Program-made: the position numbers and the translations under genes
Notes under the pieces: generated by a model
Seen by the model: the letters and a program-made list of their open reading frames with translations, nothing else
What the model was told of the DNA's origin: nothing
Databases searched by the model: none
DNA from: Gammaproteobacteria bacterium
Lineage (GTDB): Bacteria > Pseudomonadota > Gammaproteobacteria > Steroidobacterales > Foliamicaceae
Length of the DNA: 64,000 bases
Direction of reading: 5' to 3'
Assembly (NCBI GenBank): GCA_965213995.1
Contig: OZ243929.1
Coordinates: 899,324-963,323 of the forward strand
Shown here: positions 34,298 through 48,791 of the stretch, piece after piece
Position numbering within the stretch: the stretch's first letter is position 1
How the letters are laid out: every line of letters begins with the position of its first letter

Positions 34298-34298
34298 A

Positions 34299-34826: not shown

Positions 34827-34900
34827 GGGCCGTTAGCTCAACTAGGTAGAGCAGTGGACTCTTAATCCATTGGTTGCGGGTTCGATTCCCTCACGGCCCA
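34827..34900 (+). tRNA. tRNA-Lys (anticodon CTT), no encoded CCA, T-stem C:U mismatch
   Basis: Acceptor GGGCCGT/ACGGCCC, anticodon stem GTGGA/TCCAT with loop CTCTTAA. T arm GCGGG-TTCGATT-CCCTC (CCCGC expected). The discriminator A is followed by CTC, not CCA. Confidence 0.8.
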
Positions 34901-35034
34901 CTCACTTTCTGTAGCCCGTGGTCCTGCTGGAAAAACTAACGCCAAGAAGGACAAGTGATCATTAACGTCGCCATGCTGCACACCGCCTATTGACCTGTGG
35001 ACGCAAGTATTCGGTCTGTGGCTGGTTCGCTCCG

Positions 35035-35487
35035 TTATCGGGCATCGCCCAAGAATGCGCCAATAAGCTGCTTTGCGTAATGAGAAGCGGATCGGCGAAT
35101 TAGCCAACGGCTTGCGAATAGGATCAAAAAGTAAATTGCCGTTAAGGCGAGAAAGACCCAACCCATGGTCGTATCGACGTGCCAGATAAGACCAGCAGCG
35201 CATACAACGGCAGCTATGATGCTTCCTCCCGCCAAGTTTCGAAAGAAGCCGTACTCCCAATTTCTCTGCAACAATAGCGGCGATCCTCCGGCTGCCGCCC
35301 GAATGCGAGCCACTATGTCGCGGACTTGACGACGTGCCGCGATCTCGTCCCTTTCGCACAATTCGGGTGATGGCAGCTTCATGTTGAATTCCGTCTTTAC
35401 TTTTTCCGCAATTGCAACTTCGCATAGTTCGATCTGCCTGCTTGCACTCGCCATCATTTCCCAGTAGGGTTTACAGATTATATCCAT
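35035..35487 (-). CDS. small membrane protein with two C-terminal TM helices
   Basis: ORF 35035..35667 trimmed to ATG 35487 (MDIICKPYWEMM...) so that it does not overlap the divergent XRE gene; Met at 35457 is an alternative. TM segments GGSIIAAVVCAAGLIW and GWVFLALTAIYFLILFA. No recognised domain. Confidence 0.5.
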   Translation of the reverse strand: MDIICKPYWEMMASASRQIELCEVAIAEKVKTEFNMKLPSPELCERDEIAARRQVRDIVARIRAAAGGSPLLLQRNWEYGFFRNLAGGSIIAAVVCAAGLIWHVDTTMGWVFLALTAIYFLILFASRWLIRRSASHYAKQLIGAFLGDAR

Positions 35488-35497
35488 ATTGGATATA
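35479..35497. promoter_or_regulatory. perfect palindrome TATATCCA-TAT-TGGATATA in the divergent promoter region (putative XRE operator)
   Basis: 8-bp arms with a 3-nt spacer, read directly. Lies in the 35-bp gap between the 2TM gene and the XRE-ImmA gene. Confidence 0.45.
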
Positions 35498-35522
35498 TGT
35501 GTAAACTTAGGAGGAGCGAAGG

Positions 35523-36593
35523 ATGTTGGCACAACGACTGCACCGGGCACGGCAGGCGAGTGGCTTTTCGCTGCGGGCGCTGGCGGAGAAAGTTGGGGTT
35601 TCGGCAATGATGATTTCGAAGTACGAACGCGCTCAGTCCGTACCGTCCTCGGAGGTTCTGCTCTCATTGGCTAAAGCGCTCGGCGTTCGTACCGAGTACT
35701 TTTTCCGCACGTCTACAGTCAACCTTGAACGCATTGAACACCGTAATCGGAATGTTTGGAAATTGCCGAAAAGCGCGGAGAAAAAGGTACTCGCCGATGT
35801 AAGTGATCAGCTTGAGCGCTGGTTAGTACTCGACGATGTAATTCCTGCACCTTGGTCGACCCCATTCTCGTTGCCCATGGATATTCCTGAATCAGTGGAT
35901 AACTTGAATACGATCGAATCGATAGCTTCGCTAGTGCGAAATCACTGGGATCTCGGCCTGAATCCCATACCAGATCTTATTGATTCGTTGGAATCGCGCG
36001 GACTCAAGGTGTTCACGACAAAATTTGACGATCCACGATTCGAGGGAATGAGTGCGATGGCCGATGAACATTACATCATCGTTGTCAGCGGCCATTGGTC
36101 CGGTGATCGCCAACGATTTACCTTGGCTCATGAACTCGGCCATATCGTTTTAGACGATCGCCTTACGCAGGAAATTGACAAAGAAGACGCTGCAAATCGT
36201 TTTGCGGGCGCCTTCTTGGCGCCGGAAGAAAAGGTTATGGAAACCTTGGGCGCAAAACGTCGGGCTTTGGAATTCGCCGAACTGTATCTGTTGAAACACG
36301 AATTTGGATTGAGTATGGCCGGGTGGAGTTATCGAGCACTCAATCTGAACATCGTCACAAAAGCATCCCACAAGGCGTTTTGGACTGACTTTGCTGCCAA
36401 AGGGTGGAATGTAGAGGAACCTGGTCAACCATATCCTTCAGAATCGCCTCGATTGTTTCAGCAAACTGTCTATCGCGCACTCAGCGAGGAATTGATTGGT
36501 GAATCCAAGGCTGCGGAACTGCTATCCATAACTGCAAATGAACTCGCCGCTCGACGGCGGATGGAGATCGTTAATGGCGATTCTGGTCGGTGA
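35523..36593 (+). CDS. XRE-family HTH fused to ImmA/IrrE zinc metallopeptidase
   Basis: AGGAGG RBS, ATG start. N-terminal HTH (FSLRALAEKVGVSAMMISKYERAQSVPS) and HEXXH motif in FTLAHELGHIVL (COG2856-type). Confidence 0.85.
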   Translation: MLAQRLHRARQASGFSLRALAEKVGVSAMMISKYERAQSVPSSEVLLSLAKALGVRTEYFFRTSTVNLERIEHRNRNVWKLPKSAEKKVLADVSDQLERWLVLDDVIPAPWSTPFSLPMDIPESVDNLNTIESIASLVRNHWDLGLNPIPDLIDSLESRGLKVFTTKFDDPRFEGMSAMADEHYIIVVSGHWSGDRQRFTLAHELGHIVLDDRLTQEIDKEDAANRFAGAFLAPEEKVMETLGAKRRALEFAELYLLKHEFGLSMAGWSYRALNLNIVTKASHKAFWTDFAAKGWNVEEPGQPYPSESPRLFQQTVYRALSEELIGESKAAELLSITANELAARRRMEIVNGDSGR

Positions 36594-36741
36594 TGCAAAT
36601 ATCTTTATTGACGTCACTGTTTCAAATCTCTCTGAGGCAATGTTCCGTCTTGAAGACACCATCGCCACACCGGATGTTTTGTATCAAGATGAGCTTCTGC
36701 AACACCACCCGGAATTACCAGGCTTAGGGTTGCAAATTAAT
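36574..36741 (+). pseudogene. PIN-like nuclease gene truncated by an IS end
   Basis: MAILVGDANIFIDVTVSNLSEAMFRLEDTIATPDVLYQDEL resembles the N-terminal strand-Asp-helix of PIN-like (DUF3368/DUF4411-type) partners of XRE-ImmA genes. The reading frame runs into the IS inverted repeat at 36742. Confidence 0.5.
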
Positions 36742-37080
36742 TGTGCGGGTTCAGGACATGTGGGACTGGCGGGGTTCAGTTGTCCTTTGCTTGCGAAAGT
36801 ATTCCATCGGGGTCATCAAGTCCAGCGCGCAGTGGGACCGGACATGGTTGTGGAAGCGCTGGTATTCGGCCAATGCGGGCGCGGCGTACTTGGCGGTCTT
36901 TCTCCTCGGCAGAGGTTCCAGAACTCGGTTGTGGAGCTGTCGCTGGCGCGCTCGACGATGCCATTGATCTCGGGGCATTTGGGCGGCAGGACGGCCAGCG
37001 GGAGGCCGAGCGCCTGGCAGGCGCACTTTCGTCCAGTATCTAGAAGCCGTAATCCCCTACTACTGCGACAGAGTAGGCCA
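36742..37080 (-). mobile_element. IS remnant: right inverted repeat plus frameshifted 3' third of a DDE (rve) transposase
   Basis: IR TGTGCGGGTTCAGGACATGTGGGACTGGCGGGGTTCAG at 36742-36779. Minus-strand fragments read LLDTGRKCACQALGLPLAVLPPKCPEINGIVER... and, after a frameshift, YQRFHNHVRSHCALDLMTPMEYFRKQ. These correspond to the DNG..F, P.TNGKVER and YN..RPH.AL...TP motifs of IS3/IS481-type integrase cores. Confidence 0.65.
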
Positions 37081-37296
37081 GCAACTGCGGCGCTAGACCT
37101 CACCTGCTCCCCTAAAGAAAGAACGAAACGAGGGCCTAGCTGAGAGTGCAAATTAGAAAATCCAGTCAAAGACTGCGCCAAGTTTCATCTCGGATCGGAT
37201 AAAACAACCCTCACGCCCGCGTAAGTTTCGCTTTGTTCCCTGTTATGGTTGCGCGGCGGTTAGCGACATCCCGAGGCAAGCGACCACTCACGGACA

Positions 37297-38313
37297 ATGA
37301 GCGAAACAATAGCAGTGCGCGTCGAACCGGGAGAAACGCTCTCGGAGATTGCCATCCGGCACAGCGTCACCGTCGAGCAATTGCAGGAATGGAATCGGAT
37401 CGAAGAAGCGGACTATGTGCAGGCGGGCCAGAGAATCGTCGTCCATAAGGCGGCGGTTGCTCCAGGCTGGAACGAAGCGGCCGCCCCTTGGGATGCATTG
37501 CTGGGAGGAGCGCTCGTTGTAGCGGCACTGTTATTCCTGTTCCGCCGCAAACGCCAAACTCCGACTTCGTCGCCTGATACCGGAGTCCGCCCACCGAAAA
37601 AAGCACCACATCGGCCCGAACCGAAATCCGCTGCGGCATTGCGGAAACCCGCGCCGCCAGCAAACGCCGGCGAGCAACGGGTCCGATCAGTGTTGGCGAG
37701 GCGTTATCGGGACTGGCCGCTGCTTAATGACGTGCTGCTTCCGTCCGGGGGAGGGACGGCACAGATCGATCACATCCTCATCTCGCCCGCCGGCGTGTTC
37801 GTAATCGAGACCAAGGACATGGGCGGTTGGATATTCGCAAGTCCCGGGCAGCAACGGTGGACGCAAACATTGCCGGCGGGCCGTTGGTCCCGCATGATGG
37901 GCATCAAGTCGAGGCGGTTCCCTTTCTACAATCCGCTGCGGCAGAATGAAGGGCACGCGAAGGCCTTGGTCAAACTCGGCATCGTTAATCCTAGGGAGAT
38001 TCGGCCTGTCGCCGTATTCGTGGGCGAGGCCGAGATGAAAACGGAGGAGAAGTTCGCAGGATTCGAGGAGCATGAAGAGAAGGCAAAGCGGTTCCGTAGC
38101 TGGCGAATGCGAGGCGTTGTCTGCATGAGCCTGCGGGAGTTGCGGCGCTACATCGCCTTCTCCGTTCGTGCGCCATCAGGACCAAGCCTGACGCGCGAGA
38201 GGATGGAAGCGATCCGGTCAAAGATAGCAAAAGCTGCCCTGCCCTTGACGGCGGAAACTCACGCCAGACATGTCGAGTTCGCCCGGTCTGCTGAACGAGC
38301 ATCGTGGCAATGA
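37297..38313 (+). CDS. LysM - transmembrane - NERD domain fusion protein
   Basis: LysM: VRVEPGETLSEIAIRHSVTVEQLQEWNRIEEADYVQAGQRIVV. TM: ALLGGALVVAALLFLF followed by RRKRQ. NERD: GEQRVRSVLARRYRDWPLLNDVLLP..TAQIDHILISPAGVFVIETKDMGGWIF. Confidence 0.75.
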   Translation: MSETIAVRVEPGETLSEIAIRHSVTVEQLQEWNRIEEADYVQAGQRIVVHKAAVAPGWNEAAAPWDALLGGALVVAALLFLFRRKRQTPTSSPDTGVRPPKKAPHRPEPKSAAALRKPAPPANAGEQRVRSVLARRYRDWPLLNDVLLPSGGGTAQIDHILISPAGVFVIETKDMGGWIFASPGQQRWTQTLPAGRWSRMMGIKSRRFPFYNPLRQNEGHAKALVKLGIVNPREIRPVAVFVGEAEMKTEEKFAGFEEHEEKAKRFRSWRMRGVVCMSLRELRRYIAFSVRAPSGPSLTRERMEAIRSKIAKAALPLTAETHARHVEFARSAERASWQ

Positions 38314-38495
38314 ACCGCAATATCGCATGTTTGGGCTGGGGGCCTCTCATCTGGGATCCCCCGAGATCACGCACAAGTCAGCCGAAATCGGTCCCGTCAA
38401 GAATGCTCTTTAGGTGGTCGCGCCACGCGGCTTTGCCGTCTTCATCGGAAACTTCCTGCCACAGATGGTTCAGTATCCCTCTGGCGCGCTCCCGG

Positions 38496-39125: not shown

Positions 39126-39140
39126 AACGGCAATTCAGGA

Positions 39141-40481
39141 TTAGCCCAGCTTCCGCAGTCGCTCTTCGGTATTTTCCGCCGGACGGAAGATAAATGAGCG
39201 ACCGCGTTTGGTCATTTTCAGCAAACCGAGGTCAGCGAGCTTAAGCAGATCGGTTCGAGCCGTTTGATAGGTTACGTTGTGTGAAGTCCGGTGGCTGCGG
39301 ATCGTATATAGCTGATCGGGCTGCTTTCGCGCGGAAATCAATAGCGCCATCTGTCGGTGGTTAAGAATGGTTGTCAGCGCCGATCCGGCAAGAAGGCGCT
39401 GAACCTCGGAAATTTCTTTTGATTTTCGCGCCAGGTACTTGTGGAGCCGCTCAATCGCGCCAAGAATGACGCGAAGGTTGTAGTCAATGAAATAGGTGGC
39501 GTCATTGTCATCGGTTTCCGAAAAAATATACGACCTCGCGTACTGCGCTGGCGCTTTGCGAATAATGGTCGAGATTGAAAGGCACTCCGCCATCCAGTAC
39601 CCGGCGCGCGCCATGGCCCAGTAGAAAAGAGCGCGAGCGGTCCGCCCGTTGCCGTCAACAAACGGGTGCTCGTAGCCGATCATGAAGTGCAGGAGCACGG
39701 CCTTAATCACAGGATGAATGAACGAGGCGTCGTCCGTATGATTGGCAAAACGGAAAAGGTTATTCAGACGTTCTTCGAGATGGGCGGCATTGGGCGGAAT
39801 ATGCAGCACCTCGTTGTCCCGGCTGTCAATAACAAGCACCTCATCCTCGGCTCGCCTGAACCGGCCCGCAATGCCTGCATCGTTCGTCGTGCCCTCGACG
39901 AGGATGCTCTGCAGCTCCAGCAGCAAGGACATGGACAGATTCTCCCCGCCGAGTTCTCGAAGAAACTCCATGGCGCGGTAATTGTTGGCAATCATCCTTT
40001 CGCTTTTGGTCTGCGGTTCGCGCCCGGTTCGCAGCATCTCCTTGGCGACGCGGCGGGTTGTGGCAGCGCCCTCTAGTTGACTTGAGGTAATCGCTTCTTC
40101 GATCAGCGAGCTCACTAGGTAGCGATTCCGCGATTGCGGATTCACAACGTCAACCGGCAATTCGATACGACCGCTGGCATCGCGATCGATCTGGTGAAGC
40201 ATCCGGTTCAGATACCCTGAGTCGCTGAACGAAAATCGGCATCCGTTCTTGTCAGCAAGCGGAAGCTCGTGTCTTATCGAAGCCCTTGCGAACTTTATTG
40301 CCAGCCACCATTCTTCATTGGATATCCCCTCAGGTGGCTGCATGTGCTTCAGTTTTGACCAATGCGCATATCGGTCATTCGGGATATTCCCCACTCCGGA
40401 TGAGACCAGATTCAGGATTTTCCTTGCCTGCTCATGGGAATCCAAGCCGCTCAGGGAAGGCAGCGGAGAAGGCAGCTTCAT
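39141..40481 (-). CDS. Fic-family protein (AMPylase type) with autoinhibitory helix and C-terminal winged-helix
   Basis: Fic motif HPFVDGNGRTARAL and inhibitory motif SSQLEG. Start placed at ATG 40481; the track start at 40520 is TTG. Confidence 0.88.
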   Translation of the reverse strand: MKLPSPLPSLSGLDSHEQARKILNLVSSGVGNIPNDRYAHWSKLKHMQPPEGISNEEWWLAIKFARASIRHELPLADKNGCRFSFSDSGYLNRMLHQIDRDASGRIELPVDVVNPQSRNRYLVSSLIEEAITSSQLEGAATTRRVAKEMLRTGREPQTKSERMIANNYRAMEFLRELGGENLSMSLLLELQSILVEGTTNDAGIAGRFRRAEDEVLVIDSRDNEVLHIPPNAAHLEERLNNLFRFANHTDDASFIHPVIKAVLLHFMIGYEHPFVDGNGRTARALFYWAMARAGYWMAECLSISTIIRKAPAQYARSYIFSETDDNDATYFIDYNLRVILGAIERLHKYLARKSKEISEVQRLLAGSALTTILNHRQMALLISARKQPDQLYTIRSHRTSHNVTYQTARTDLLKLADLGLLKMTKRGRSFIFRPAENTEERLRKLG

Positions 40482-40525
40482 TGAGAATAAACCTAGACTG
40501 GAAGGCAAGCCAAATATCAATTTTC

Positions 40526-40598
40526 TACTAATTCATATCAAATTAGTAACTCGTGGCGCCCAATGTAAATAAAATACTAATTAATGTCAAATTAGTAT
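40526..40598. promoter_or_regulatory. two operator-like palindromes upstream of Fic gene 1
   Basis: TACTAATT-CATATCA-AATTAGTA (40526-40548) and ATACTAATT-AATGTCA-AATTAGTAT (40574-40598). Both have the same half-site and a 7-nt spacer, in an AT-rich region. Confidence 0.5.
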
Positions 40599-40663: not shown

Positions 40664-40831
40664 TGACTCCACCGGCCGCCAACAATCATGTGATAGTATG
40701 CACACATGATTGCTATCACAAGAGGCGTTGAACATGCTGGCCTTAGGAACTAGCACGGCTTGCCGGAATCGGCGGCTGGGTCGGCCCGTGAAACGCCAAA
40801 CGATAGCAAGACACCACTACTTGGAGGAGTC

Positions 40832-41491
40832 ATGTATATTAAATCCCCCCCCCCCCCTTCAAAAAAACTAGCGCTACTTGCAGCAACCGCACTGCTATCC
40901 GCCACCCAGCTAGCATTAGCAGCACCTGGAGTATCTCTGGGCACAAAGCAAAGCAACATGGGCGGAAGTGAGCTCACCCTTTCATTGACCTGCGGTACGA
41001 AAGGATATCTCGCCACAGGGGTTGGAGAGGACCATGCGACCTATCTGGGGCAGCGACAGCGTAGTGACGGCTCCAACACGACTCCGTTGGAGTCCGGGCT
41101 CGTCAATCTTGCGTCCACGTACTTCTACGTCCGAGGGGTAGGTATCGGAAGAGCATCGGATGACGGTAATTTCTCGCCCCTTCCAGAAAATCATCCCGGG
41201 CGTGCCTGGGGCGCAAAGAGATGGGGAGATTTATGGGGTGCCGTCATGCAGCCTCGTTACGAGGTTGACATTGAGTTGACCGCGACTCCACAGCCGGACC
41301 CTCCGGTGTATTTCGTAACTAACAACACTAGCGGTATTCCAGTCGAGAGCAAGACTGTGATCGTTCAGCGCAGGTATGACACCCCATACGCAGAGCAAAA
41401 CGTGAGCTTGGTGCGTTACTGCGATCTCAATTCCAAAGAAACGATCAGTGTCACCATCAATGGAAGGATCACAGGCAAAAGGCCATTGTGA
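40832..41491 (+). CDS. secreted hypothetical protein with a C13 tract in its signal-peptide codons
   Basis: GGAGGA 4 nt upstream of ATG 40832. MYIKSPPPPSKKLALLAATALLSATQLALA|APG looks like a Sec signal peptide. The mature part has no recognised domain. Confidence 0.6.
   Translation: MYIKSPPPPSKKLALLAATALLSATQLALAAPGVSLGTKQSNMGGSELTLSLTCGTKGYLATGVGEDHATYLGQRQRSDGSNTTPLESGLVNLASTYFYVRGVGIGRASDDGNFSPLPENHPGRAWGAKRWGDLWGAVMQPRYEVDIELTATPQPDPPVYFVTNNTSGIPVESKTVIVQRRYDTPYAEQNVSLVRYCDLNSKETISVTINGRITGKRPL
40845..40857 (+). repeat. homopolymeric C13 tract followed by TTC and A7
   Basis: Counted directly: 6 C at 40845-40850 plus 7 C at 40851-40857. A7 at 40861-40867. Confidence 0.95.
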
Positions 41492-41749
41492 TCCTTGAGA
41501 CGACCGACGGAAGCATGGTGGAGTCATGATCCGTTGCCCTCCTCACCATCCCTGCACTCGCGACGGCGGAGCTATGCGACGACCACTGGTACGACAACCT
41601 CCATCGAAAAATCGAACCCGATAACTAACTCTACGCGGGGATTACCGGAGCAAGGCCTTGGGCCTGTACTCCGACACCATCATGCGCCCGGCTGCGGAAA
41701 TCGAAAAGCATCTGGCGCGGCGGAAGGCGGCGCAGGAAGCGGAAAGCCG

Positions 41750-42679: not shown

Positions 42680-43616
42680 TGCCGCTGGCCTCCGAATCCT
42701 CCCTGCCCCGCTGCGCCGCGGCTTGGTCGTAATAGTGCTCCACGAAGTGCTCGGCAATTTCCCGGGCCGTGGCCACCCACACGTCCGGATGCCCGGTGAT
42801 ATAGGCCAGCGCGTCCTCGAACGCGCGCAGCCGGTGCGGATGCGCCACCTGGTAGGCGTGCAGCGGCACGCACATCACCGTGCCGCCCCGCTCGCCTTCC
42901 CGGCGGAGCCGGTCGAAGGCCTGCTTGATCATGGCACCGTAACGCCTAGGCTCGATGCGGTTGACCACATAGACGATGGTGTCGTTGAGTTCCAGCGAGT
43001 AGGGCACGGAAACGAACGGCTTGCCGGAGCGCACCCGCACCGGCGTGGGCTGGTCGTCGTGGAAAAGATCGCAGGTGTAAAGCCCGCCGGCCTCGCTGAA
43101 CAGGTCGAGCGTGCGCTCGGTATGGGTGAGGGCCGGGGCCAGATAGCCGGAGCACTGCTGCCCCGTGTGCTTGGCGATGGCGCGCACCGAATCCTCAATC
43201 ATGGATCGCTCCTGAGCCTCGTCCATGCCGTACACGTAGCGCGTGTTGTAGATGCCGTGGCTGAAGAATTCCCAATTGCGCTCGCGGCACATGTCGATGA
43301 TCTCGGGATGGTGCTCGCACAACGCCACCGACAGGCTCACCGAGCCGCGCACGCCGTGGCGGTCGAGCACCTCCATCATGCGCGCATGGCCCACCCGGTT
43401 GCCGTAGTCGCGCGTTCCGTAGCCCTGGATATCGGGCGCCGGGCGCGGCCAGGCCTTGCGCTGCGGATTAGGCGGCGGATCCAGTTCGTAGAACTCGATA
43501 TTGGGCGCCACCCAGAAGGCGACCCTGGCGCCGCCCGGCCAGCGGATCGGCAGGCGCTCGTCCCAAGCGCGGTAGTCGTAAAGGGCCGGATCCTCGCGCA
43601 CTGGAAATACCCGCAA
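42669..43616 (-). CDS. polysaccharide deacetylase-family hydrolase, paralog 2
   Basis: Shares RDYGNRVG, HGV..S.S..A and PWL/HPHR-type blocks with paralog 1. The track start is TTG, so the start is uncertain. Confidence 0.75.
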   Translation of the reverse strand: MRVFPVREDPALYDYRAWDERLPIRWPGGARVAFWVAPNIEFYELDPPPNPQRKAWPRPAPDIQGYGTRDYGNRVGHARMMEVLDRHGVRGSVSLSVALCEHHPEIIDMCRERNWEFFSHGIYNTRYVYGMDEAQERSMIEDSVRAIAKHTGQQCSGYLAPALTHTERTLDLFSEAGGLYTCDLFHDDQPTPVRVRSGKPFVSVPYSLELNDTIVYVVNRIEPRRYGAMIKQAFDRLRREGERGGTVMCVPLHAYQVAHPHRLRAFEDALAYITGHPDVWVATAREIAEHFVEHYYDQAAAQRGREDSEASGNGA

Positions 43617-43623
43617 ACCGCCC

Positions 43624-44337
43624 CTAGAAGCCCGCGCCGCGCGCCTGACGGATCGGCTCGCAGCCGGGATGGCTCTTAAGCCAGCTTTCCACTGCGGCGA
43701 AAGGCTCCACGTCCGCGTACTTGAGCATGATGTCGCAAAGGTTGGCGAAATGCGGAATCTCGTGCTTGTCGGCCACGCACTCCTCCGGCACGACGGTCCG
43801 ATAGCCGTGCGAAAGCGAGGCGACCGCCGAGGCGCGCACGCAGCCGGACGTGCTGCCGCCGGTAAGGATCACCGTATCGACCTTGTGCCAAACCAAAAGC
43901 GAGGGAATCAGGCTGTCGTGGAAAACGCTCGCCATGCGCTTGTTGACCACGGCATCGCGGTCGCGATCGACCTCAAGGCGCGGGTCGAGCTCCGCCCGGG
44001 CGCCGCCCTCCTTGATATTCTGGAGCGAATGCTCGGTATTGGTGCGCGTGCCCCAAACGCCGGCATCATCGGCGTTGCCCATGTAGGCCACGTAGGTCCA
44101 GATCACCGGCATGTTCCGGCCGCGCGCCAGCGCCGACAGACGGTTGATATAGTCGATCTGGCCGGGGTCCGTCTGGTAGGCCGTGGGAAAGCGGTCGATA
44201 TCCGTATAGGCGCGCTGCAAATCGATATTGATCAGCGCCGCTTTTTCGCCGAAGCCGAAACGCGCCCGGTTAGGGTTGGACTTGACCTCTTCCCAATACT
44301 GGCGCGGCGTCAGATTGGAGGTTTGCATCTTTGGCAT
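43624..44337 (-). CDS. isochorismatase-family cysteine hydrolase
   Basis: ALINIDLQRAY (Asp), VNKRMASVF (Lys), and TVILTGGSTSGCVRASA (catalytic Cys). Confidence 0.8.
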   Translation of the reverse strand: MPKMQTSNLTPRQYWEEVKSNPNRARFGFGEKAALINIDLQRAYTDIDRFPTAYQTDPGQIDYINRLSALARGRNMPVIWTYVAYMGNADDAGVWGTRTNTEHSLQNIKEGGARAELDPRLEVDRDRDAVVNKRMASVFHDSLIPSLLVWHKVDTVILTGGSTSGCVRASAVASLSHGYRTVVPEECVADKHEIPHFANLCDIMLKYADVEPFAAVESWLKSHPGCEPIRQARGAGF

Positions 44338-44432
44338 CGGCGCACCCGGGCAATGGCATGACGGTCGATAAAGCCCATGTTAATCCATCAACGGCTTGAA
44401 GCCGGCCTCGTCGTTGCCGAACCCGCCGGCAA

Positions 44433-45524
44433 TCAGGGGCCCTCGGACAGGAGCGCCAGCAGCGGCGGGTTGATGTAAAGGTTTTCGCGGCCCGCCTTCA
44501 TCTTCTCCAGAATGGCCTCGTCCGCCAAAGTGTTCAGATAGACGGCGGCCGTCTGGCGCTGTCCTATGCCCGCCCTGACCACATCGTTCACCCGGCAGTA
44601 GGGATTCACGAAGATCAGTTCCACCAGTTCCCGGGAGTAGATTTTCGGCAACTTCCACCGGATTGCGGAGGTTGTCTCGTCGAGAAGCCTGCGGATTGCG
44701 CGGATTTTCTCCGTGGTCCATTCAGCTGTCGTCCTGACGGCTTCCAGCATGAAAAGGATCCATGCCTCCCAATCCTGTCCGGTCGTCACCGCGAGCAGGT
44801 GCCGATAGTAGAGCGCCTTGTTCCTGATGATGTATCGGCTGAGATAGAGAACAGGAATATCAAGCAGATTCTTGTCCACAAGAAAAAGCAGGTTCAACAC
44901 CCGCCCGGTTCGACCATTGCCGTCCGCAAACGGGTGGATCGCCTCGAACTGATAATGCATGACCGCGAGCCGGATCAAGGGATCGATCTCTTCGGCCCCG
45001 TGGATATAGCGTTCCCAATTGGCCAGTTTCGTCCGAATCAAGTCCTCTCCCGCAGGCGGCGTGTAAATCAACTTTTGGGTCGCGTCATTGATCAGGGCCG
45101 TTCCAAGGACTTTGCGAATATCGAGATCGATGCCCTTGATGATTCTGCACACCTCAACGGCCATGGCGGTCGCAGCCGGCCGGTTATTCAGCATCTCGAA
45201 GCCCCTGTGGAGGGCGGTGCGGTAGCGCAGGGCCTCCTTAGTGGCGGGATCCGCCCGGCCTGTCGCATCGTTGGCATGGCGGAACAGCCGGTCAGCCGTC
45301 GTGACGATGTTTTCGATCTCGGAACTCGCTTGGGCTTCAAGCAGCGGGATCGAGTTGATCAGCACGGACTGGTTCGGAATGAGCTTCCCGGAAGCCCGCA
45401 GTTCCGCCAGCGCCGCGCGTGCCGCGATGCAACTGCGGAGAATCGTCTTTGTCTCGGTTTCCGCGGCGGGCGGCAGGTCCGGCAATTCGTTGTATGGACG
45501 CGCAGGGTCGAATGACTGGGGCAT
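44433..45524 (-). CDS. Fic-family protein with Fic_N domain
   Basis: ORF 44433..45596 trimmed to ATG 45524 (MPQSFDPARPYNELPDLPP). Inhibitory motif SSEIEN and Fic motif HPFADGNGRTGRVL. Confidence 0.9.
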   Translation of the reverse strand: MPQSFDPARPYNELPDLPPAAETETKTILRSCIAARAALAELRASGKLIPNQSVLINSIPLLEAQASSEIENIVTTADRLFRHANDATGRADPATKEALRYRTALHRGFEMLNNRPAATAMAVEVCRIIKGIDLDIRKVLGTALINDATQKLIYTPPAGEDLIRTKLANWERYIHGAEEIDPLIRLAVMHYQFEAIHPFADGNGRTGRVLNLLFLVDKNLLDIPVLYLSRYIIRNKALYYRHLLAVTTGQDWEAWILFMLEAVRTTAEWTTEKIRAIRRLLDETTSAIRWKLPKIYSRELVELIFVNPYCRVNDVVRAGIGQRQTAAVYLNTLADEAILEKMKAGRENLYINPPLLALLSEGP

Positions 45525-45562
45525 GTTGTCCTGTATCCCGCTGATGCGGATGGGTCCGCGGA

Positions 45563-45623
45563 ACATGTCGATTTTATCGACATGTCGCTGAAACATGTCG
45601 ATAAAATTGAATTATATCGACAT
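45563..45623. promoter_or_regulatory. two operator-like palindromes upstream of Fic gene 2
   Basis: ACATGTCGAT-TTT-ATCGACATGT (45563-45585, perfect 10-bp arms) and ATGTCGATA-N11-TATCGACAT (45595-45623). Confidence 0.5.
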
Positions 45624-45643
45624 ATCCTAACGCAGCAAGCAGT

Positions 45644-46015
45644 TGTGCGGGTTCACCACATATGGGACTTTTCGAGTTCAGCCGTCCTATGTTTGCGAAG
45701 GTATTCCATCCCTGTCCGGCATCTGGCGGACCACCCGCGAAGCCATCGCCAAGCACTACCTCAACCACCACGCCGCAAAGCGAATAGCCGTTCCGCGCTT
45801 TGCCCAAAGCCGTGCCGTCAGGATGAAGTCTTTCGTCCGACAACCAGCGCTTCTGTCATCCTGTTCCTTAGATTCTCCGCCGCGCCCAAATGGTAGAAAT
45901 GCGAGAAGGTTCTAATCTCATATTCCCGGAAGGATTGATGCAGCCGCTCATTTTTCCTGTACTTGTTTTCAGACCACATCGAATCGCCCGTTCCTCCATG
46001 AAGTGCAACCCTAAG
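45644..46015 (-). mobile_element. second, more degenerate IS remnant of the same family (right IR plus decayed transposase 3' end)
   Basis: IR TGTGCGGGTTCACCACATATGGGAC... at 45644. Minus-strand fragments read SENKYRKNERLHQSFREYE (compare P.TNGKVERF..TLK.E) and MEYLRKHRTAELEKSHMW* (compare MEYFRKQRTTEPRQSHMS* in remnant 1). Confidence 0.55.
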
Positions 46016-46018
46016 GCA

Positions 46019-46657
46019 TTAGGAGAAACTGAAATCTTCGAAGCGCTGTTTCAAAGCTTGTTTGTTAGGCTTTCGCGCCCTGTTTTTCGGCTCACGTAGA
46101 GGTCGGCCGTGATACTTCCCGTAGCCGCTATTGCGGAGTTCCGCTTTGACCACAACCTTGAAGCTGCCCGGATCGATAGTTATTAGGCCGCAGTCGAACA
46201 GCGTGTGAATATCGGCGCGGAGCAGGAGCCCGTTGCTTACGCAGCTCGTGCCTTTATCTGCGTACGGGTGAATATGCGCCGCCTCCAATACATCCTGAAC
46301 CGCGCATTTAGTGATCGCACACTTGTGTTCATAGGCTTCAAGCAATCCTTGCCGAAATGCACTTTGTCCGCGGCGTTGCAGGATCAATGTATTGATCCGT
46401 TCCCATGCCCCCTCGATCGTTTCCAGGTTGCCTGCGTCATCGTCCGCAGCGTCCGGTGAAAGCGGTGACAGACCGCCGAGTGGGCCAAGCACCTCCTGCA
46501 GTTTCTTGCGATTCTCCTCCTTCGGACGGCGAGTCCCACGCTCCCAATGAGAAATCATTCCCGTAGACACGCCAATTTTCTCTGCGAGCTTGGCTTGCGT
46601 AAGACCAATTTCGAGACGACGGCGCTGCATGCTTTTGCCAAGACTGTTATCACTCAT
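46019..46657 (-). CDS. XRE-type HTH fused to HNH_2 endonuclease domain
   Basis: AAGGAG RBS, ATG start. HTH: LTQAKLAEKIGVSTGMISHWERGTRRP. HNH: CAITKCAVQDVLEAAHIHPYADKGTSCVSNGLLLRADIHTLFDCGLITID. Confidence 0.8.
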   Translation of the reverse strand: MSDNSLGKSMQRRRLEIGLTQAKLAEKIGVSTGMISHWERGTRRPKEENRKKLQEVLGPLGGLSPLSPDAADDDAGNLETIEGAWERINTLILQRRGQSAFRQGLLEAYEHKCAITKCAVQDVLEAAHIHPYADKGTSCVSNGLLLRADIHTLFDCGLITIDPGSFKVVVKAELRNSGYGKYHGRPLREPKNRARKPNKQALKQRFEDFSFS

Positions 46658-46739
46658 TGCTGATTTCTCCTTGGATGGCAGATTGAGGTTATCTTGCCCG
46701 TTTGTTGATTGTTCTTAATTGGCGCTACCCCGCCTTCTG

Positions 46740-47549
46740 CTAGCGTGACAGAGCCTTGCTGATTTGCTGGCAGAATTTCTTTCTTTCAGGGGCTTCTGTG
46801 TAGAGCACAGCCTGCTGCAGGTTTGAATGGCTCGTGCCTTCAACCTCGGAGAGCGCGAACCTCTTGCCGCCCGGATTTTCTGGATCGTCCTCGTAAGAGT
46901 AGGACATGAAGATGATGTTGACGGTGCTGTCCCGCACGTCCCGCGTCCGCATGAATTCCGCCTTGGCCCGCACGTATTCGTACAAGACATCCTGCATCAC
47001 CGCGACAATCTTCGTGCCCCAATGATGATGAAAATATCCCTTTCGTATGAGCTGCGTGATGTAGCGCTTATAGACATTGTCGAAGTTAAGCCCGTAGCTT
47101 TTCTTCGTCTCCATCTGCCGCACTTCGCGCATGGCCGAGTAGGCATCCCCCACCGTTCCAGTGATATCAATGGCTTGCAGTTCAACCGATAAGAACTGGC
47201 CTATGCCGCCCTCTTCATCGACATCGGCCACAACGAAATCCACGTTGCCAAAGCCCGTCATCTTTACTTCGCGGGCCACCTTGGGATTCACAGGCGGGTT
47301 TCCGGGCCAGCAATGCTTGACAACATCGCTCAAGAAATCGACTTGATTGAAGCGTTTGGGACACACGCATACCTGCCTGCCCAATTTCCAAATTGAGCAG
47401 ACCGGATAAGGCTCCTTGAGGGAAGTGCTGCGCTTGACGCACTGCGTTCCCAGGAACGGGCACGTGAACGAATGGGCGGACGGATCGAGTCCTGGCTCTG
47501 CGGGCCGACCCAAGACCTCGCAAATGTATTCTCTCGGATCAGACGGCAA
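46740..47549 (-). CDS. type II restriction endonuclease, NotI-like fold
   Basis: The N-terminal Cys cluster FTCPFLGTQCVKRS..PYPVCSIW..VCVCPKRF resembles the NotI Fe-Cys4 motif (CPFL..C..VC..VCP.R). Later blocks LSVELQAIDITG and GLNFDNVYKRYITQL parallel NotI. Overlaps the Dcm gene by 11 nt. The start is TTG and uncertain. Family assignment is from memory, not from a search. Confidence 0.6.
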   Translation of the reverse strand: MPSDPREYICEVLGRPAEPGLDPSAHSFTCPFLGTQCVKRSTSLKEPYPVCSIWKLGRQVCVCPKRFNQVDFLSDVVKHCWPGNPPVNPKVAREVKMTGFGNVDFVVADVDEEGGIGQFLSVELQAIDITGTVGDAYSAMREVRQMETKKSYGLNFDNVYKRYITQLIRKGYFHHHWGTKIVAVMQDVLYEYVRAKAEFMRTRDVRDSTVNIIFMSYSYEDDPENPGGKRFALSEVEGTSHSNLQQAVLYTEAPERKKFCQQISKALSR

Positions 47550-48693
47550 TGGCTAGTTCCAAGTCGGCATCGCCTTGGCGTTCCGGTTCCGCAAGCTGCA
47601 TCGCGCGAAGCATTGCTTGGGCAACGCGCTTTGCGAGAACCGGCGGCACCGCGTTGCCCACTTGAACAAACTGTTCGGTTCTAGGCCCCTGAAATTGAAA
47701 CCGGTCCGGAAAGGATTGCAGCCGTGCCGCTTCGCGCACGGTGAGCACGCGATCCTGTTCGGGGTGGATATACGCGCCCCAATGGATATCGCATTTTGTA
47801 AGCACGGTGCTTGACAGGCCATCGTTGCGGAGCCGGCCGTAACGCTTGGTATGGTCGCAACGGCGCGCCTTTTTCATTCCGGCCGGCAATAGGTCGTGCG
47901 GAATATCGCGCCAGCTGCCTCCCGGCCCAATATGCTTCATCCGCTGCAAATTGATCGGGGCAAGGCGGGGCGCGGCGTGGTTATGGACGACGGTTGAATC
48001 GCCCCGCATCATTGCCTGAAAGCCCGAACGGGCCGGGGCGCGGTAGCTCGCAGGGCCAGCATCTTCGCCGTTCTTGAGTTTCGGCAAATCGCTGATGGCC
48101 TCCCCCACAGTCACAAAGGGCAGAAGGCCGCGCCCATGTGTCGGCTGCGGCCACAACACAGGCAAGCCCAGCCGGTTGCCAACGAAAAATACCCGGCGCC
48201 GCTCTTGCGGCACGCCGTGCTCTTCCGCCCTTAACGTCCGCATATCCACAACGTAGCCCAACTCGGAGAGGCCCGCCAAAATTTTCTTGACCGCCTTGCC
48301 TTTTCCGGCGGAAGTAATCCCGGTGACATTCTCCAGCACCACCCATTTCGGGGCCAATCCCCTAACAATCCGCAGATATTCCTCGAATAGCCTGCTGCGC
48401 TTGTCGTGAAGGCCGCGCTGATGGTTATAAACGCTGAACGCTTGGCAAGGCGGCCCGCCGATCAGGCAGTCCAGCCCCCCTTTTTCCAGACCGGTTGCTT
48501 CAAGGAGATGGTCCGCGCTGATTTCCTCGATGGGTCCCGGCAGGAACCCGGCGGCATCATGCGCCACGCTGAATGTGGCGCCGGCATGCTCGTCGAAATC
48601 GTTGCCGGCCAGAATCGTGAAGCCCGCCTGCTGAAATCCCTCGGAAAGACCTCCTGCTCCGCAGAACAGGTCGATGGCTGTTATTTCCTGCAT
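47539..48693 (-). CDS. dcm: DNA (cytosine-5)-methyltransferase
   Basis: Motif I DLFCGAGGLSEGF, IV GGPPCQAFS, VI VVLENV, IX RLQSFPDRFQF, X VGNAVPP. Confidence 0.92.
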   Translation of the reverse strand: MQEITAIDLFCGAGGLSEGFQQAGFTILAGNDFDEHAGATFSVAHDAAGFLPGPIEEISADHLLEATGLEKGGLDCLIGGPPCQAFSVYNHQRGLHDKRSRLFEEYLRIVRGLAPKWVVLENVTGITSAGKGKAVKKILAGLSELGYVVDMRTLRAEEHGVPQERRRVFFVGNRLGLPVLWPQPTHGRGLLPFVTVGEAISDLPKLKNGEDAGPASYRAPARSGFQAMMRGDSTVVHNHAAPRLAPINLQRMKHIGPGGSWRDIPHDLLPAGMKKARRCDHTKRYGRLRNDGLSSTVLTKCDIHWGAYIHPEQDRVLTVREAARLQSFPDRFQFQGPRTEQFVQVGNAVPPVLAKRVAQAMLRAMQLAEPERQGDADLELAIAV

Positions 48694-48791
48694 TGCCCTA
48701 GCTCCTTGGCTTGATGCGTGGTTGGCATGTTCGCTGCCTTGCTCCGCAACGGTCGGATTGCATTATCCTAAAGCAAAAGCCTTTTCGCGGG

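Follow-up and report, generated by a model that had tools for sequence, protein, structure and literature searches.

The interval between tRNA-Lys(CTT) and a moeB-like gene in the window (the whole stretch of 64,000 nucleotides analyzed here, with related loci denoted by L numbers) is in all likelihood a long-lived variable region, or hotspot, rather than one integrated element. At least six different contents start just past tRNA-Lys: the type seen in the window and L107, an amidohydrolase gene in L001, the content of L081, a PDC-S37/Hhe-like helicase-nuclease with a PLD-like gene in L085/L088, an NgoFVII/PLD-like nuclease in L086, and, in other lineages, core DNA. No integrase was found in any of these six contents over the 0.04-15 kb that was examined downstream. 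After PDA1 there is a second variable spot, where relatives carry a PemK toxin-antitoxin pair (L100), AAA_14/DUF4143 (L080), a methyltransferase with an XcyI-like endonuclease (L006), or a DEAD helicase (L099). The first-pass annotation had described a mosaic, defense-rich, decayed, and recombinase-free region, which stands, and had taken it for a single 13.9-kb island, which does not, given a catabolic trio that appears to be core DNA and a NotI-like/Dcm pair that also lies by moeB in four relatives. The gene content that it listed agrees with our Pfam, PADLOC, and NCBIfam calls (Table 1).

Table 1. Features of the interval between the two conserved anchors, in window positions
Feature	Position	Strand	Evidence
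tRNA-Lys(CTT), left anchor of hotspot	34827..34900	+	ARAGORN; Rfam 66.4 bits
C-terminal ~128 codons of 228-aa membrane protein gene	35035..35422	-	82% aa identity to C-terminus of L107 5746-6432
Deletion junction	35411..35422		3.75 kb of L107 missing in window
XRE-HTH + M78 (ImmA/IrrE) peptidase fusion, predicted RmrA-type antitoxin, intact gene	35523..36593	+	Pfam, PADLOC
Truncated PIN/DUF3368 toxin partner, first 56 codons	36574..36741	+	Colinear with L107 163-aa PIN gene
Putative DDE (rve-type) IS remnant	36742..37190	-	Stitched translation vs rve_3
LysM-transmembrane-NERD protein, window-specific	37297..38313	+	Pfam NERD 3.5e-26, LysM 1e-10
Dam-type (D12) adenine methyltransferase, C-terminal 212 of 310 codons	38496..39134	-	89% aa identity to L002
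Fic gene 1, distant SoFic-like	39141..40520	-	Pfam Fic 2e-17; PADLOC SoFic 3e-40
Two copies of palindrome TACTAATTnATnTCAAATTAGTA, 49 nt apart	40526..40597		Direct-repeat family D6
Single-gene cassette	40682..41643	+	95.4% identity over 971 nt to L106 9853-10821
Catabolic trio: two PuuE-like polysaccharide-deacetylase-family genes + isochorismatase-family hydrolase	41686..44395	-	Synteny, composition
SoFic (Fic gene 2), intact	44433..45596	-	NCBIfam equivalog NF046030; PADLOC SoFic 1e-114
Second fragment of same putative IS family: transposase C-terminus + IS end	45643..45710	-	81% identity to 36741-36808
3' remnant of deleted PDA-paralogue gene	45708..45769	+	95% identity to L013 12649-12710 (gene end)
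HTH-HNH nuclease gene	46019..46657	-	Pfam HNH_2 6e-14, HTH_3 2e-12; PADLOC HNH 9e-16
NotI-like endonuclease (46740-47549) + Dcm-type m5C methyltransferase (47539-48693)	46740..48693	-	Pfam
moeB-like ThiF/rhodanese gene, conserved right anchor	48792..49919	-	Pfam ThiF 1e-81, Rhodanese 5e-14

Borders, Composition, and the tRNA-Lys Gene

The G+C content is 0.655-0.664 in the flanks, 0.547 at 34902-38482, 0.536 at 39134-41685, 0.651 across the trio (41686-44395), and 0.54-0.58 at 44396-48740, such that windowed composition bears out the previously noted drop past position 34900. The tetranucleotide distance from the core is greatest in the two left pieces (z = 7-8), smaller in the right pieces (3.2-3.8), and nil in the trio (0.0). 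At the left border, homology to four relatives stops at 34902-34903, and two contigs that are 97.7% identical upstream of tRNA-Lys are unrelated right past the discriminator base; the proposed start of variable DNA at the last base of the tRNA holds to within about 10 nt. Among the relatives compared, none showed a true empty site there at >95% identity. On the right, the search for moeB relatives yielded 357 matched stretches, from which 80 loci were kept. The border had been placed at the moeB stop codon, but does not lie there in any recent sense, because the NotI-like/Dcm pair adjoins moeB in four relatives, with core-like divergence.

ARAGORN places four tRNAs (Pro, Arg, His, and Lys(CTT)) at 34407-34901. 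Read from the sequence, the first three (Rfam scores of 63.8-72.6 bits) encode CCA, and tRNA-Lys does not, its 3' end being ...ACGGCCCA followed by CTCA, with a T stem (GCGGG/CCCTC) that contains a C50:U64 mismatch. In this respect the sequence agrees with the first-pass annotation, which had singled out tRNA-Lys among the four for both features and had concluded from them that its 3' half looks replaced by that of an integrating element. This argument fails the refuting test proposed along with it: seven related loci (L001, L081, L085/L088, L086, and L107/L108) have an orthologous tRNA-Lys with exactly this mismatch and no CCA, and in one of them, L001, a high-GC amidohydrolase gene ends 42 nt past the tRNA and there is no island. 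The whole gene is in fact identical in L081, L085, L086, L088, L107, and L108, and the L001 copy differs in the D loop only. Other lineages encode CCA in tRNA-Lys, whereas all members of the window's lineage are without it. In other lineages the pair is G50:U64, with the same 3' strand, and the mismatch is thus due to the base at position 50, which belongs to the 5' strand of the T stem, and not to the 3' strand. Both oddities are traits that the lineage has inherited, in a gene whose score remains that of a normal tRNA, and nothing in these comparisons points to a replacement of the 3' half in a common ancestor long ago.

Resident and Acquired Pieces of the Interval

The trio (by Pfam, two Polysacc_deac_1 genes and an isochorismatase) is found downstream of moeB in 8 of the 15 closest moeB loci (L013, L003, L004, L006, L008, L009, L059, and L080) and in five further contigs (L099, L100, L102, L103, and L104); in about 20 related genomes, it forms the tail of a conserved catabolic cluster adjoining moeB. 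The synteny map of the 15 closest loci places this cluster downstream of moeB, and the called-gene contexts of L099, L100, L103, and L104 agree. As the trio is common to relatives, has core-like composition, and shows a GC3 of 0.82-0.86, it is best read as ancestral core DNA and not as island cargo; its dN/dS is 0.09-0.18. Both L103 and L100 have the catabolic cluster without the restriction-modification (RM) pair and without the tRNA, with defense cargo being absent from the stretch of L103 that was read and limited in L100 to the small PemK pair after PDA1. The contig of L013, the closest relative of the window (95%), stops in a poly-G run 300 bp beyond the trio.

To the right of the trio, the block 44396-45707 stands in for three genes that relatives have there (alpha/beta-hydrolase, Amdase-family, and PDA-paralogue), with exact breakpoints against L013 (window 44395 = L013 15270; window 45708 = L013 12710), and the PDA-paralogue gene persists as a 62-nt remnant with the translation ...GIWRTTREAIAKHYLNH. 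The Fic gene in this block reaches 578.6 bits against NF046030 (cut-off 550), with Pfam Fic_N, Fic, and SoFic_C domains. The HTH-HNH gene is co-oriented with the RM pair and occupies the same place as Vsr in L001 (14504-14917) and L012. For the RM pair itself (Pfam NotI 28.3 bits, with a cut-off of 22; DNA_methylase 3e-64), orthologues adjoin moeB in L001, L002, L012, and L013, with the L013 NotI gene cut to 62 codons, and dN/dS is 0.06-0.10; the genes look like a type II RM pair that is long resident and under purifying selection. Compared with L001, the dS of the RM genes is about 1.1, twice the 0.58 of moeB, and this excess could reflect allelic exchange instead of strict co-descent.

The piece adjoining the tRNA, 34901-36741, appears to be a decayed copy of a larger defense island found at the same tRNA-Lys in L107, where a membrane protein gene is followed by the E1-E2-JAB fusion, a 385-aa gene, the RmrA-PIN toxin-antitoxin, type I RM, and further genes. 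By blastn, window 34366-35422 corresponds to L107 5115-6134 (81% identity) and window 35411-36741 to L107 9889-11219 (89%), and the segment absent between them holds the E1-E2-JAB fusion gene (E1-E2 in L107: PADLOC 1.6e-81), the 385-aa gene, and the membrane protein gene's 5' portion. A 210-aa ORF at 35035-35667 is a chimera made by this deletion, with residues 1-86 matching the L107 region upstream of RmrA. The XRE-M78 protein (Pfam HTH_3 4e-14, Peptidase_M78 3e-16; PADLOC RmrA 1.3e-55), which is 92% identical to P0131 of L107, is predicted to be an RmrA-type antitoxin of RosmerTA-like toxin-antitoxin defense modules. The PIN gene tracks its L107 counterpart to '...GLGLQIN' (codon 56), then departs and meets the IS end TGTGCGGG; the fragment shares 51% identity with the N-terminus of PIN proteins of 164 aa that are encoded after XRE genes on plasmids of Shewanella and Vibrio. 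The PADLOC model for RmrT gave no match, and RmrA is probably an orphan antitoxin in the window.

The IS remnants reported earlier are real, though degenerate. In the left fragment, the IS end TGTGCGGGTTCAGG... directly adjoins the truncated PIN gene, and frameshifts interrupt the transposase C-terminus; a stitched minus-strand reading of 36754-37031 matches rve_3 with E = 5e-5, at 23.3 bits and thus below the Pfam cut-off of 26.5, and window 37016-37169 is 75% identical to L085 690-843. The 68 nt at 36741-36808 recur at 45643-45710, where the reading ...MEYLRKHRTAELEKSHMW, followed by a stop, parallels ...MEYFRKQRTTEPRQSHMS, followed by a stop, of the left fragment. With a sub-threshold domain match and a motif reading behind it, the IS assignment is putative.

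Between the left IS fragment and the trio lies a series of further genes. The LysM-NERD protein has no close homologue in the 100+ related loci, the sole match being to L049 (43% aa identity over 111 residues). The Dam fragment, a partial MethyltransfD12 match in Pfam, corresponds to residues 99-310 of L002 6703-7635 with a dN/dS of 0.07; its N-terminus was lost where it meets the Fic1 block, and blastn homology stops at 39133. In the translation of Fic gene 1, the HPFVDGNGRTAR motif is intact and an SSQLEG inhibitory motif is present, and the palindrome pair directly upstream is a candidate operator. The gene of the 0.96-kb cassette (40832-41491) encodes a signal-peptide protein of no assigned family, and its codons 5-9 contain a C13 tract (40845-40857) that is C22 in the L106 copy; a poly-Pro run is also present in P0124. 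Because the matching 971 nt of L106 lie in an unrelated genomic context, where they adjoin IS genes, the cassette is considered mobile. Judging from intact ORFs and family membership, the RM pair, SoFic, Fic1, and NERD may still be functional defense genes.

Alternative Origins

A single ~13.9-kb integrative element that entered tRNA-Lys site-specifically, supplied its 3' half, and later lost its integrase and distal repeat would account for variable DNA beginning at the last base of the tRNA, for low-GC DNA flanking the trio on both sides, and for a CCA that is missing throughout the lineage and encoded in others. The tRNA-Lys 3' end can indeed serve as an attachment site, as indicated by a bare 25-nt copy, including CCA, at a prophage/host junction in the unrelated viral contig L098. 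As a 13.9-kb unit, however, this element is already contradicted, and we regard it as highly improbable: the trio and the RM pair are common to many relatives at the locus, L013 has catabolic genes exactly at the window's SoFic position, L001 shares the tRNA traits without an adjacent island, and the mismatch stems from C50, with a 3' strand that is that of the G50:U64 lineages. Neither a recombinase remnant nor a direct repeat was recovered. Neither the ORFs nor the gaps other than 38290-38520, translated in six frames (with gap 40500-41780 covered on one strand in two of three frames), show a tyrosine or serine recombinase domain, and searches for a second copy of the tRNA-Lys 3' end, with a 22-mer or 16-mer at up to 3 mismatches or a 29-mer at up to 6, gave none, the sole near match being a 12-mer with one mismatch at 47918, within the conserved Dcm gene. 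These domain and repeat searches bear out the earlier description of an integrase-free region without a convincing tRNA 3'-end repeat.

A narrower possibility, which we consider rather unlikely, is that only the part near the tRNA (34901 to about 41686) represents one or more classical tRNA-targeting islands, with integrases acting in trans or encoded distally and with the contents of relatives being different elements at the same attB. The islands of L107 and L085 run on past the sequence that was read, and their far ends may hold an integrase or a direct repeat. Integrases of tRNA-linked islands usually adjoin the tRNA, and none is present within 0.6-15 kb of it in 5/5 occupied contexts. A tRNA-end repeat is likewise absent at every locus read, and the first nucleotides past the tRNA vary by island type, which is unexpected if a common core ran past it. 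Weighing in favor of such islands are the sharp junction at the discriminator base between contigs that are near-identical upstream, the occurrence behind this one tRNA of five or more low-GC contents unrelated to one another, and the role of tRNA 3' ends as classical attB sites, as Williams 2002 is cited in PMC10250203. An assembly artifact, in which the mosaic arose from chimeric strain joins at the tRNA cluster and the IS fragments of a metagenome-assembled genome (MAG), appears very improbable. Hotspots and IS copies are typical places of misassembly, the closest relatives are all MAGs, as are most of the 80 moeB loci, and the L013 contig breaks just past the trio; nevertheless, the tRNA-to-island junction is seen independently in two different assemblies (L107 and L108), the RM-moeB junction recurs in all four relatives that have the pair, and the scars at the trio-to-SoFic and IS-to-PDA-remnant junctions are those of a simple deletion or replacement that left gene remnants behind, with no unrelated core DNA abruptly joined there.

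Proposed History and Comparison with Known Hotspots

Returning to the long-lived hotspot as the preferred reading, from the observed homologies, breakpoints, truncations, and conservation patterns we infer the following order of separate events. The ancestral state in this gammaproteobacterial clade would have been moeB followed by PALP, SDR, PDA-paralogue, Amdase-family, alpha/beta-hydrolase, amidohydrolase, isochorismatase, PDA2, and PDA1. The NotI-like/Dcm pair would have settled by moeB long ago and been retained by selection, after which a rearrangement would have put the aldehyde-dehydrogenase/tRNA cluster against the far end of the catabolic cluster, and an L107-type defense island would have taken the site right past tRNA-Lys. 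This island would then have decayed, with the 3.75-kb deletion removing the E1-E2-JAB genes and the rve-type IS cutting the PIN toxin after codon 56, everything beyond being lost or replaced. Further cassettes (LysM-NERD, the now truncated Dam gene, a Fic gene, and the secreted-protein cassette) would have gathered subsequently, and finally the SoFic gene and an IS fragment would have taken the place of three catabolic genes. Turnover at the tRNA end probably proceeded via homologous recombination in the conserved flanks, tRNA-targeting elements without retained integrases, or both.

Among known systems, the core defense hotspots cDHS1 and cDHS2 of Pseudomonas aeruginosa (Johnson et al. 2023, PMC10250203) share with the window a position defined by conserved flanks of core DNA, one of them a tRNA or tmRNA gene, defense-gene sets that vary by genome, a lowered G+C content, and no single mobile-element type that accounts for the site. 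In contrast to these, the window site belongs to an uncultured, sponge-associated-type gammaproteobacterial lineage, its cargo amounts to about 9 kb compared to a cDHS median of 26 kb (PMC10250203) and is interleaved with remnants of the catabolic cluster that it eroded, and no mobility genes at all were seen in the copies read. The tRNA 3'-end border, atypical composition, and accessory cargo resemble tyrosine-recombinase tRNA-linked genomic or pathogenicity islands, insofar as these are represented by the citation of Williams 2002 in PMC10250203, but the interval studied here has no integrase, tRNA 3'-end repeat, or excisable unit, and part of it is ancestral core. Similarly, to the extent that flexible genomic islands are outlined where PMC10250203 cites the concept, unrelated cassettes at one position between conserved flanks recall the replacement type and several discrete insertions gathering beside a tRNA the additive type, whereas here both behaviors occur in one 14-kb interval, with exchange deduced from sequence. 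At the level of individual systems (Millman et al. 2022, bioRxiv 10.1101/2022.05.11.491447), the Zn-peptidase antitoxin has the HTH+M78 architecture of RmrA in RosmerTA, although its PIN/DUF3368 partner is cut after codon 56 and the predicted module is not intact, and Fic gene 2 is, like the SoFic system, a stand-alone Fic protein with a full-length match to the SoFic model. The hotspot beside tRNA-Lys is thus a tRNA-flanked defense hotspot of a known kind, and an ordinary bacterial variable region.

Composition, gene content and features of an integrated element

The G+C content falls after position 34900, from 0.655-0.664 in the flanks to 0.50-0.56, and recovers at about 48.7 kb, as described in the first-pass annotation, which had proposed a single integrase-less island of 13.9 kb (34827-48790) between tRNA-Lys(CTT) and moeB. 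Within this interval, G+C is 0.65 again over 41.7-44.4 kb and then 0.54-0.58 up to about 48.7 kb. The gene list of that annotation is correct by Pfam, PADLOC and NCBIfam, and the features are collected in the table.

Features between the tRNA cluster and moeB (window positions)
Feature	Position	Basis
tRNA-Pro, tRNA-Arg, tRNA-His, tRNA-Lys(CTT)	34407-34901	Rfam
HTH_3 + Peptidase_M78 gene	35523-36593	Pfam
LysM + NERD gene	37297-38313	Pfam
Partial D12 methyltransferase gene (Dam fragment)	38496-39125 (fragment 38483-39133)	Pfam; homology to related locus L002
Fic1	39141-40520	Pfam Fic
Secreted-protein gene	40832-41491	
Two polysaccharide-deacetylase-family genes (PDA1, PDA2) and isochorismatase-family gene (the trio)	41750-44337	
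Full-length SoFic (Fic2)	44433-45596	
HTH-HNH protein gene	46019-46657	
NotI-family endonuclease and Dcm methyltransferase genes	46740-48693	
ThiF/rhodanese moeB	48792-49919	

Of the four features that define an integrase-mediated tRNA island, the region has one, a tRNA gene as a boundary, with homology to relatives stopping at 34902-34903, and it lacks the other three. In agreement with the first-pass annotation, no tyrosine or serine recombinase domain was found by Pfam in ORFs of at least 150 aa or in the gaps scanned in six frames (34890-35700, 36540-37320 and 45570-46040) or in five of six (40500-41780); the sole match was a sub-threshold one to rve_3 (DDE transposase). The direct repeat of the tRNA 3' end that had been sought in vain at the right border is also absent from the window as a whole: the sequence that an attR copy would carry is GGTTCGATTCCCTCACGGCCCA, and searches with a 22-mer and a 16-mer (each with up to 3 mismatches) and a 29-mer (up to 6 mismatches) gave no match, the nearest being a 12-mer with one mismatch at 47918, within the conserved Dcm gene. 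Such repeats are absent from the related loci L001, L081, L085, L086 and L088 as well. Finally, the presence or absence of the block as one unit is contradicted by the relatives, among which the trio, the restriction-modification (RM) pair, the Dam fragment and the block carrying the RmrA-type gene (HTH_3 + Peptidase_M78) are each distributed differently, and the proposed single 13.9-kb unit is not supported.

Searching viral contigs with the tRNA 3' 22-mer returned a pair of unrelated tRNA-Met genes together with a single fragment at a prophage junction in an unrelated organism, and no element related to the proposed island. We note that viral contig L098, from an unrelated organism, holds at 2706-2730 a 25-nt copy of the tRNA 3' end, bare but with CCA, that separates a GH31 host gene from phage structural genes, as an attachment-site-type fragment at a prophage border. 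Tandem Repeats Finder gave nothing meaningful. Three repeats within 34300-50000 were set apart from chance hits, namely a 68-nt IS fragment, twin palindromes upstream of Fic1 and an 18-nt palindrome at the SoFic start; the remaining inverted and direct repeats look like chance or PDA1/PDA2 paralogy. A 29-nt match (93% identical) links 40635-40663, upstream of the secreted-protein cassette, to 17092-17120 in the left core, ~23 kb away.

tRNA-Lys(CTT) and the boundary of the variable DNA

As read from the sequence, CCA is encoded after tRNA-Pro, tRNA-Arg and tRNA-His, unlike tRNA-Lys, which ends in ...TTCGATTCCCTCACGGCCCA followed by CTCA, and the T stem of the latter (GCGGG/CCCTC) contains a C50:U64 mismatch; both oddities had been correctly noted. 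This tRNA-Lys scores 66.4 bits with the Rfam tRNA model (63.8-72.6 bits for its three neighbours), and an Rfam scan of 34000-50500 gave nothing above threshold besides the four tRNAs. In tRNA-His (34655-34731), both the G-1 residue (34655) and the CCA end are encoded. The spacer between tRNA-His and tRNA-Lys measures 95 nt in the window; that of L001, with a long imperfect palindrome inside it, measures 255 nt.

The first-pass annotation had attributed the two oddities to replacement of the tRNA 3' half by an integrating element. The orthologous tRNA-Lys of L001, however, has an identical 3' half, with C50:U64 and without CCA, and there a high-GC amidohydrolase gene that belongs to the catabolic cluster has its stop codon 42 nt past the tRNA, so that L001 has no adjacent island. 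A metagenome scan with positions 50 and 64 left free in the search pattern found a tRNA-Lys identical to that of the window in L081, L085, L086 and L088, all of the window's lineage, and the tRNA-Lys genes of L107 and L108 are identical to it too. In 11 contigs of other lineages, position 50 paired as G50:U64 in nine and was a U in two, with CCA encoded in all. On its 3' side, the T stem thus has the common sequence, and the mismatch arises from the C at position 50. The missing CCA and C50:U64 are lineage traits that do not depend on the downstream DNA. Insofar as orthologues stand in for paralogues of the same organism, this is the outcome that the first-pass annotation had named as refuting its replaced 3' half. 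A replacement of the 3' half that occurred anciently, in the ancestor of the lineage, is possible, but is without positive support. The state is unchanged in at least seven loci with flanks about 15% diverged. That the tRNA-Lys 3' end may serve as a landing point for whole-cassette swaps, independently of a recombinase or with one acting in trans, and that its CCA-less, C50:U64 state would be a fixed by-product or requirement of this rather than neutral drift, we consider improbable.

By the same comparisons, the tRNA end is a genuine boundary of variable DNA. The left flank, with an aldehyde dehydrogenase gene and the four-tRNA cluster, is common to L001, L081, L085, L086, L088 and L107, and the right flank, with moeB and an H+-PPase gene, was found in 15 loci. 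L081 and L086 share 97.7% identity as far as the discriminator base, past which they are unrelated, and G+C drops across the tRNA from 0.63-0.65 to 0.49-0.55 in all four lineage contigs (L081, L085, L086 and L088). The cargo that follows comprises a TIR-like protein, a PLD-like protein and a 1992-aa DUF4011/MTES_1575 helicase-nuclease (PADLOC PDC-S37, Hhe) in L085/L088, an NgoFVII/PLD-type nuclease in L086, and an unassigned ORF in L081. No integrase was found in the 0.6-15 kb read after the tRNA in the occupied sites of relatives.

Ancestral genes, a resident RM system and separate cassettes

A scan with the moeB protein, one genome per species, gave 80 loci, the closest of which belong to uncultured Gammaproteobacteria known from MAGs ('Candidatus Foliamicus' and bins from sponges), with moeB amino-acid identities of 95% for L013 and 77-82% for a further group. 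Mapping the proteins of the window and of L001 onto the 15 closest loci revealed a conserved order after moeB: PALP enzyme, a further polysaccharide-deacetylase gene (PDA-paralogue), Amdase-family protein, alpha/beta-hydrolase, amidohydrolase, isochorismatase, PDA2 and PDA1. Called-gene contexts of further relatives, reached via PDA1 homologues, agree with this order and lengthen it at either end, to H+-PPase, JAB, ThiS, moeB, PALP, SDR, the cluster, TonB-dependent receptor, SDR, GlnS, RpoD and DnaG. The higher-GC trio (segment 41686-44395) is therefore the far end of a core cluster of ancestral origin. In tetranucleotide composition it cannot be told from the core of the window (z = 0.0), and it has a GC3 of 0.82-0.86 and a dN/dS vs relatives of 0.09-0.18. 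PDA1 is 100% identical to database protein P0001. The stretch read in L103 is without defence genes, RM system or tRNA, and L100 differs from it solely by a small PemK toxin-antitoxin pair after PDA1. In L002 (4020-6514), the block of alpha/beta-hydrolase, Amdase and PDA-paralogue runs in the opposite direction from that in every other relative, and next to it comes a 310-aa Dam of full length.

Directly after PDA1 lies a second variable spot, occupied by that PemK pair in L100, an AAA_14/DUF4143 ATPase in L080, a methyltransferase with an XcyI-like endonuclease in L006, and a large DEAD helicase in L099. Across genomes, the count of different contents is at least six at tRNA-Lys and at least five at PDA1.

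The RM pair is compositionally foreign (z = 3.2). Its Dcm, a complete predicted m5C methyltransferase, matches DNA_methylase (Pfam, 3e-64) over profile positions 2-323 of 324, and its endonuclease scores 28.3 bits against NotI (cut-off 22). As in a type II RM system, the genes are co-oriented and adjacent, with an 11-nt overlap. The pair also stands beside moeB in L001, L002, L012 and L013, at 83-97% amino-acid identity and with dN/dS of 0.06-0.10; it is an old resident kept by selection. A Vsr gene follows it in L001 and L012, at the position of the HTH-HNH gene in the window. In L013 (12349-12575), the NotI-like endonuclease is down to its last 62 codons and Dcm is intact, an RM system on its way to a solitary methyltransferase.

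The SoFic gene occupies the place of part of the ancestral cluster. Homology of the trio to L013 runs to window 44395 (L013 15270) and resumes at window 45708 (L013 12710) with 62 nt, 95% identical, from the 3' end of the L013 PDA-paralogue gene. Between these breakpoints, L013 has 2.56 kb with the alpha/beta-hydrolase gene, the Amdase-family gene and most of the PDA-paralogue, and the window has 1.31 kb with the SoFic gene and a 68-nt fragment (45643-45710). Fic2 scores 578.6 bits against NF046030 (cut-off 550; model positions 1-357 of 361) and Fic1 49 bits, so that the latter is not a SoFic member by this curated-model test; the motif HxFx(D/E)GNGRxxR reads HPFADGNGRTGR in the translation of Fic2 and HPFVDGNGRTAR in that of Fic1. 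An 18-nt inverted repeat (TCGATTTTATCGACATGT / ACATGTCGATAAAATTGA, 7-nt spacer) spans the SoFic start codon region at 45568-45610. The 68-nt fragment is 81% identical to 36741-36808, and on the minus strand both copies encode a transposase C-terminus followed by a stop (...TPMEYFRKQRTTEPRQSHMS and ...TGMEYLRKHRTAELEKSHMW). We read the two as probable degenerate copies of one rve-type IS family, with the caveat that the longer remnant (36754-37031, frameshift-corrected) matches Pfam rve_3 below the cut-off (E = 5e-5; 23.3 bits vs 26.5). No intact copy of this IS was found in the window or in the related loci searched.

The left third of the block has its counterpart in L107. The HTH_3 + Peptidase_M78 protein matches PADLOC RmrA over its full length (1.3e-55), and a 92% homologue (P0131) lies on contigs L107 (ENA ERZ23491298, scaffold_354; 15 kb read) and L108, where the aldehyde dehydrogenase and the four tRNAs are those of the window. 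Homology between the window and L107 continues past the tRNA in two blocks (window 34366-35422 = L107 5115-6134, 81%; window 35411-36741 = L107 9889-11219, 89%), between which L107 has 3.75 kb that are missing from the window, with the 5' portion of a gene for a 228-aa membrane protein, a 734-aa E1-E2-JAB fusion (PADLOC E1-E2 1.6e-81, JAB 5e-23) and a 385-aa gene. The 210-aa 'TM protein' ORF of the window (35035-35667) is a chimera made by this deletion, and was rejected on that ground as an RmrT toxin candidate; PADLOC gave no RmrT model match in the window. In L107, a complete 163-aa PIN/DUF3368 gene overlaps the end of the RmrA gene; the window stays colinear as far as codon 56 (...GLGLQIN) and switches at 36742 to TGTGCGGGTTCAGG, the end of the IS. 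The genes that come after PIN in L107 (a type I RM system, HEPN_AbiU2 and an Mrr-like gene) are all missing from the window. Segment 34901-36741 is thus a decayed version of the left end of a larger defence island, which stands at the same tRNA-Lys in L107. The same XRE-plus-PIN pair is also found on Shewanella and Vibrio plasmids. Both RosmerTA and SoFic are described defence systems (Millman et al., bioRxiv 10.1101/2022.05.11.491447); the HTH and Zn-peptidase (M78) antitoxin of RosmerTA is present in the window whereas an intact adjacent toxin gene is absent, such that the RosmerTA-like module appears to survive as an orphan antitoxin only.

In L107 itself, the multi-pass membrane protein, the 734-aa E2-E1-JAB triple fusion and the 385-aa protein are encoded right after tRNA-Lys (5746-9843) as a predicted ubiquitin-like conjugation operon within a defence island; the window keeps just the last ~128 codons of such a membrane protein. 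CBASS was considered for this set and rejected, as the 385-aa protein has no cyclase-like match and weak MBL-like hits only, and the set is left unnamed.

The remaining cassettes have other affinities. The Dam fragment corresponds to residues 99-310 of the 310-aa Dam at the far end of the L002 catabolic cluster, its N-terminus having been lost at the junction with the Fic1 block. LysM-NERD and Fic1 have no close counterpart in the loci read, the sole match being a 43%-identity NERD-domain protein in L049. Directly upstream of Fic1 lie two copies (40526-40548 and 40575-40597) of a 23-nt palindrome, TACTAATTnATnTCAAATTAGTA, which look like candidate paired operator sites for a dimeric regulator. 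The secreted-protein gene, which encodes a signal peptide and is without family assignment, lies in a 0.96-kb segment (40682-41643) that is 95.4% identical to 9853-10821 of L106, a higher-GC contig otherwise without similarity to the window, where it adjoins IS genes; the gene plus promoter behaves as a mobile cassette of one gene. Codons 5-9 contain a C13 tract (40845-40857), vs C22 in L106, a 9-nt difference that leaves both in frame, with no out-of-frame variant, such as phase variation would produce, seen in the two copies; a poly-proline run is also present in a 65% homologue and absent from more distant ones. The length difference and the run in the homologue make a hypermutable tract plausible, though both lengths are in frame.

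Routes of cassette exchange and relation to known hotspots

The comparisons establish that deletions with mapped end points took place, that IS ends lie at two of the junctions, and that one single-gene cassette recurs in an unrelated context. Exchange of cassettes at the tRNA end could have proceeded via homologous recombination, for which the conserved tRNA cluster and right flank would supply the anchors, or, alternatively, via tRNA-targeting elements whose integrases have been lost or lie beyond the DNA read. We favor a mixed history; that the left part arose by purely integrase-driven insertion seems unlikely.

In Pseudomonas aeruginosa, core defence hotspots lie between core genes, a tRNA or tmRNA gene among them, and cannot be ascribed to a single type of mobile element (PMC10250203); these are the closest described phenomenon to the region studied here. 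The region has the features of such a core-flanked hotspot: conserved flanks, differing contents, and known defence families, which are RmrA, SoFic (twice), HNH, REase_II and MTase_II in the window (PADLOC), and E1-E2/JAB, type I RM, AbiU2, Mrr, PDC-S37/Hhe and PLD nucleases in the cargo of relatives. It is a further example of this known type and not a new kind of element. Of the earlier picture of an old, decayed and rearranged defence-type island, the decay, the rearrangement and the defence character stand, and the single island and the replaced tRNA half are not supported.

A low-GC block beside a tRNA, when judged from one genome, can pass for a single island, whereas comparison with relatives reveals several independent cassettes in it, alongside core genes of ancestral origin and a long-resident RM system. 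The exact breakpoints document defence genes displacing metabolic genes in little-studied, uncultured, symbiont-type Gammaproteobacteria, and L107-type islands and the tRNA-Lys and PDA1 sites are places to seek further defence systems in these organisms.
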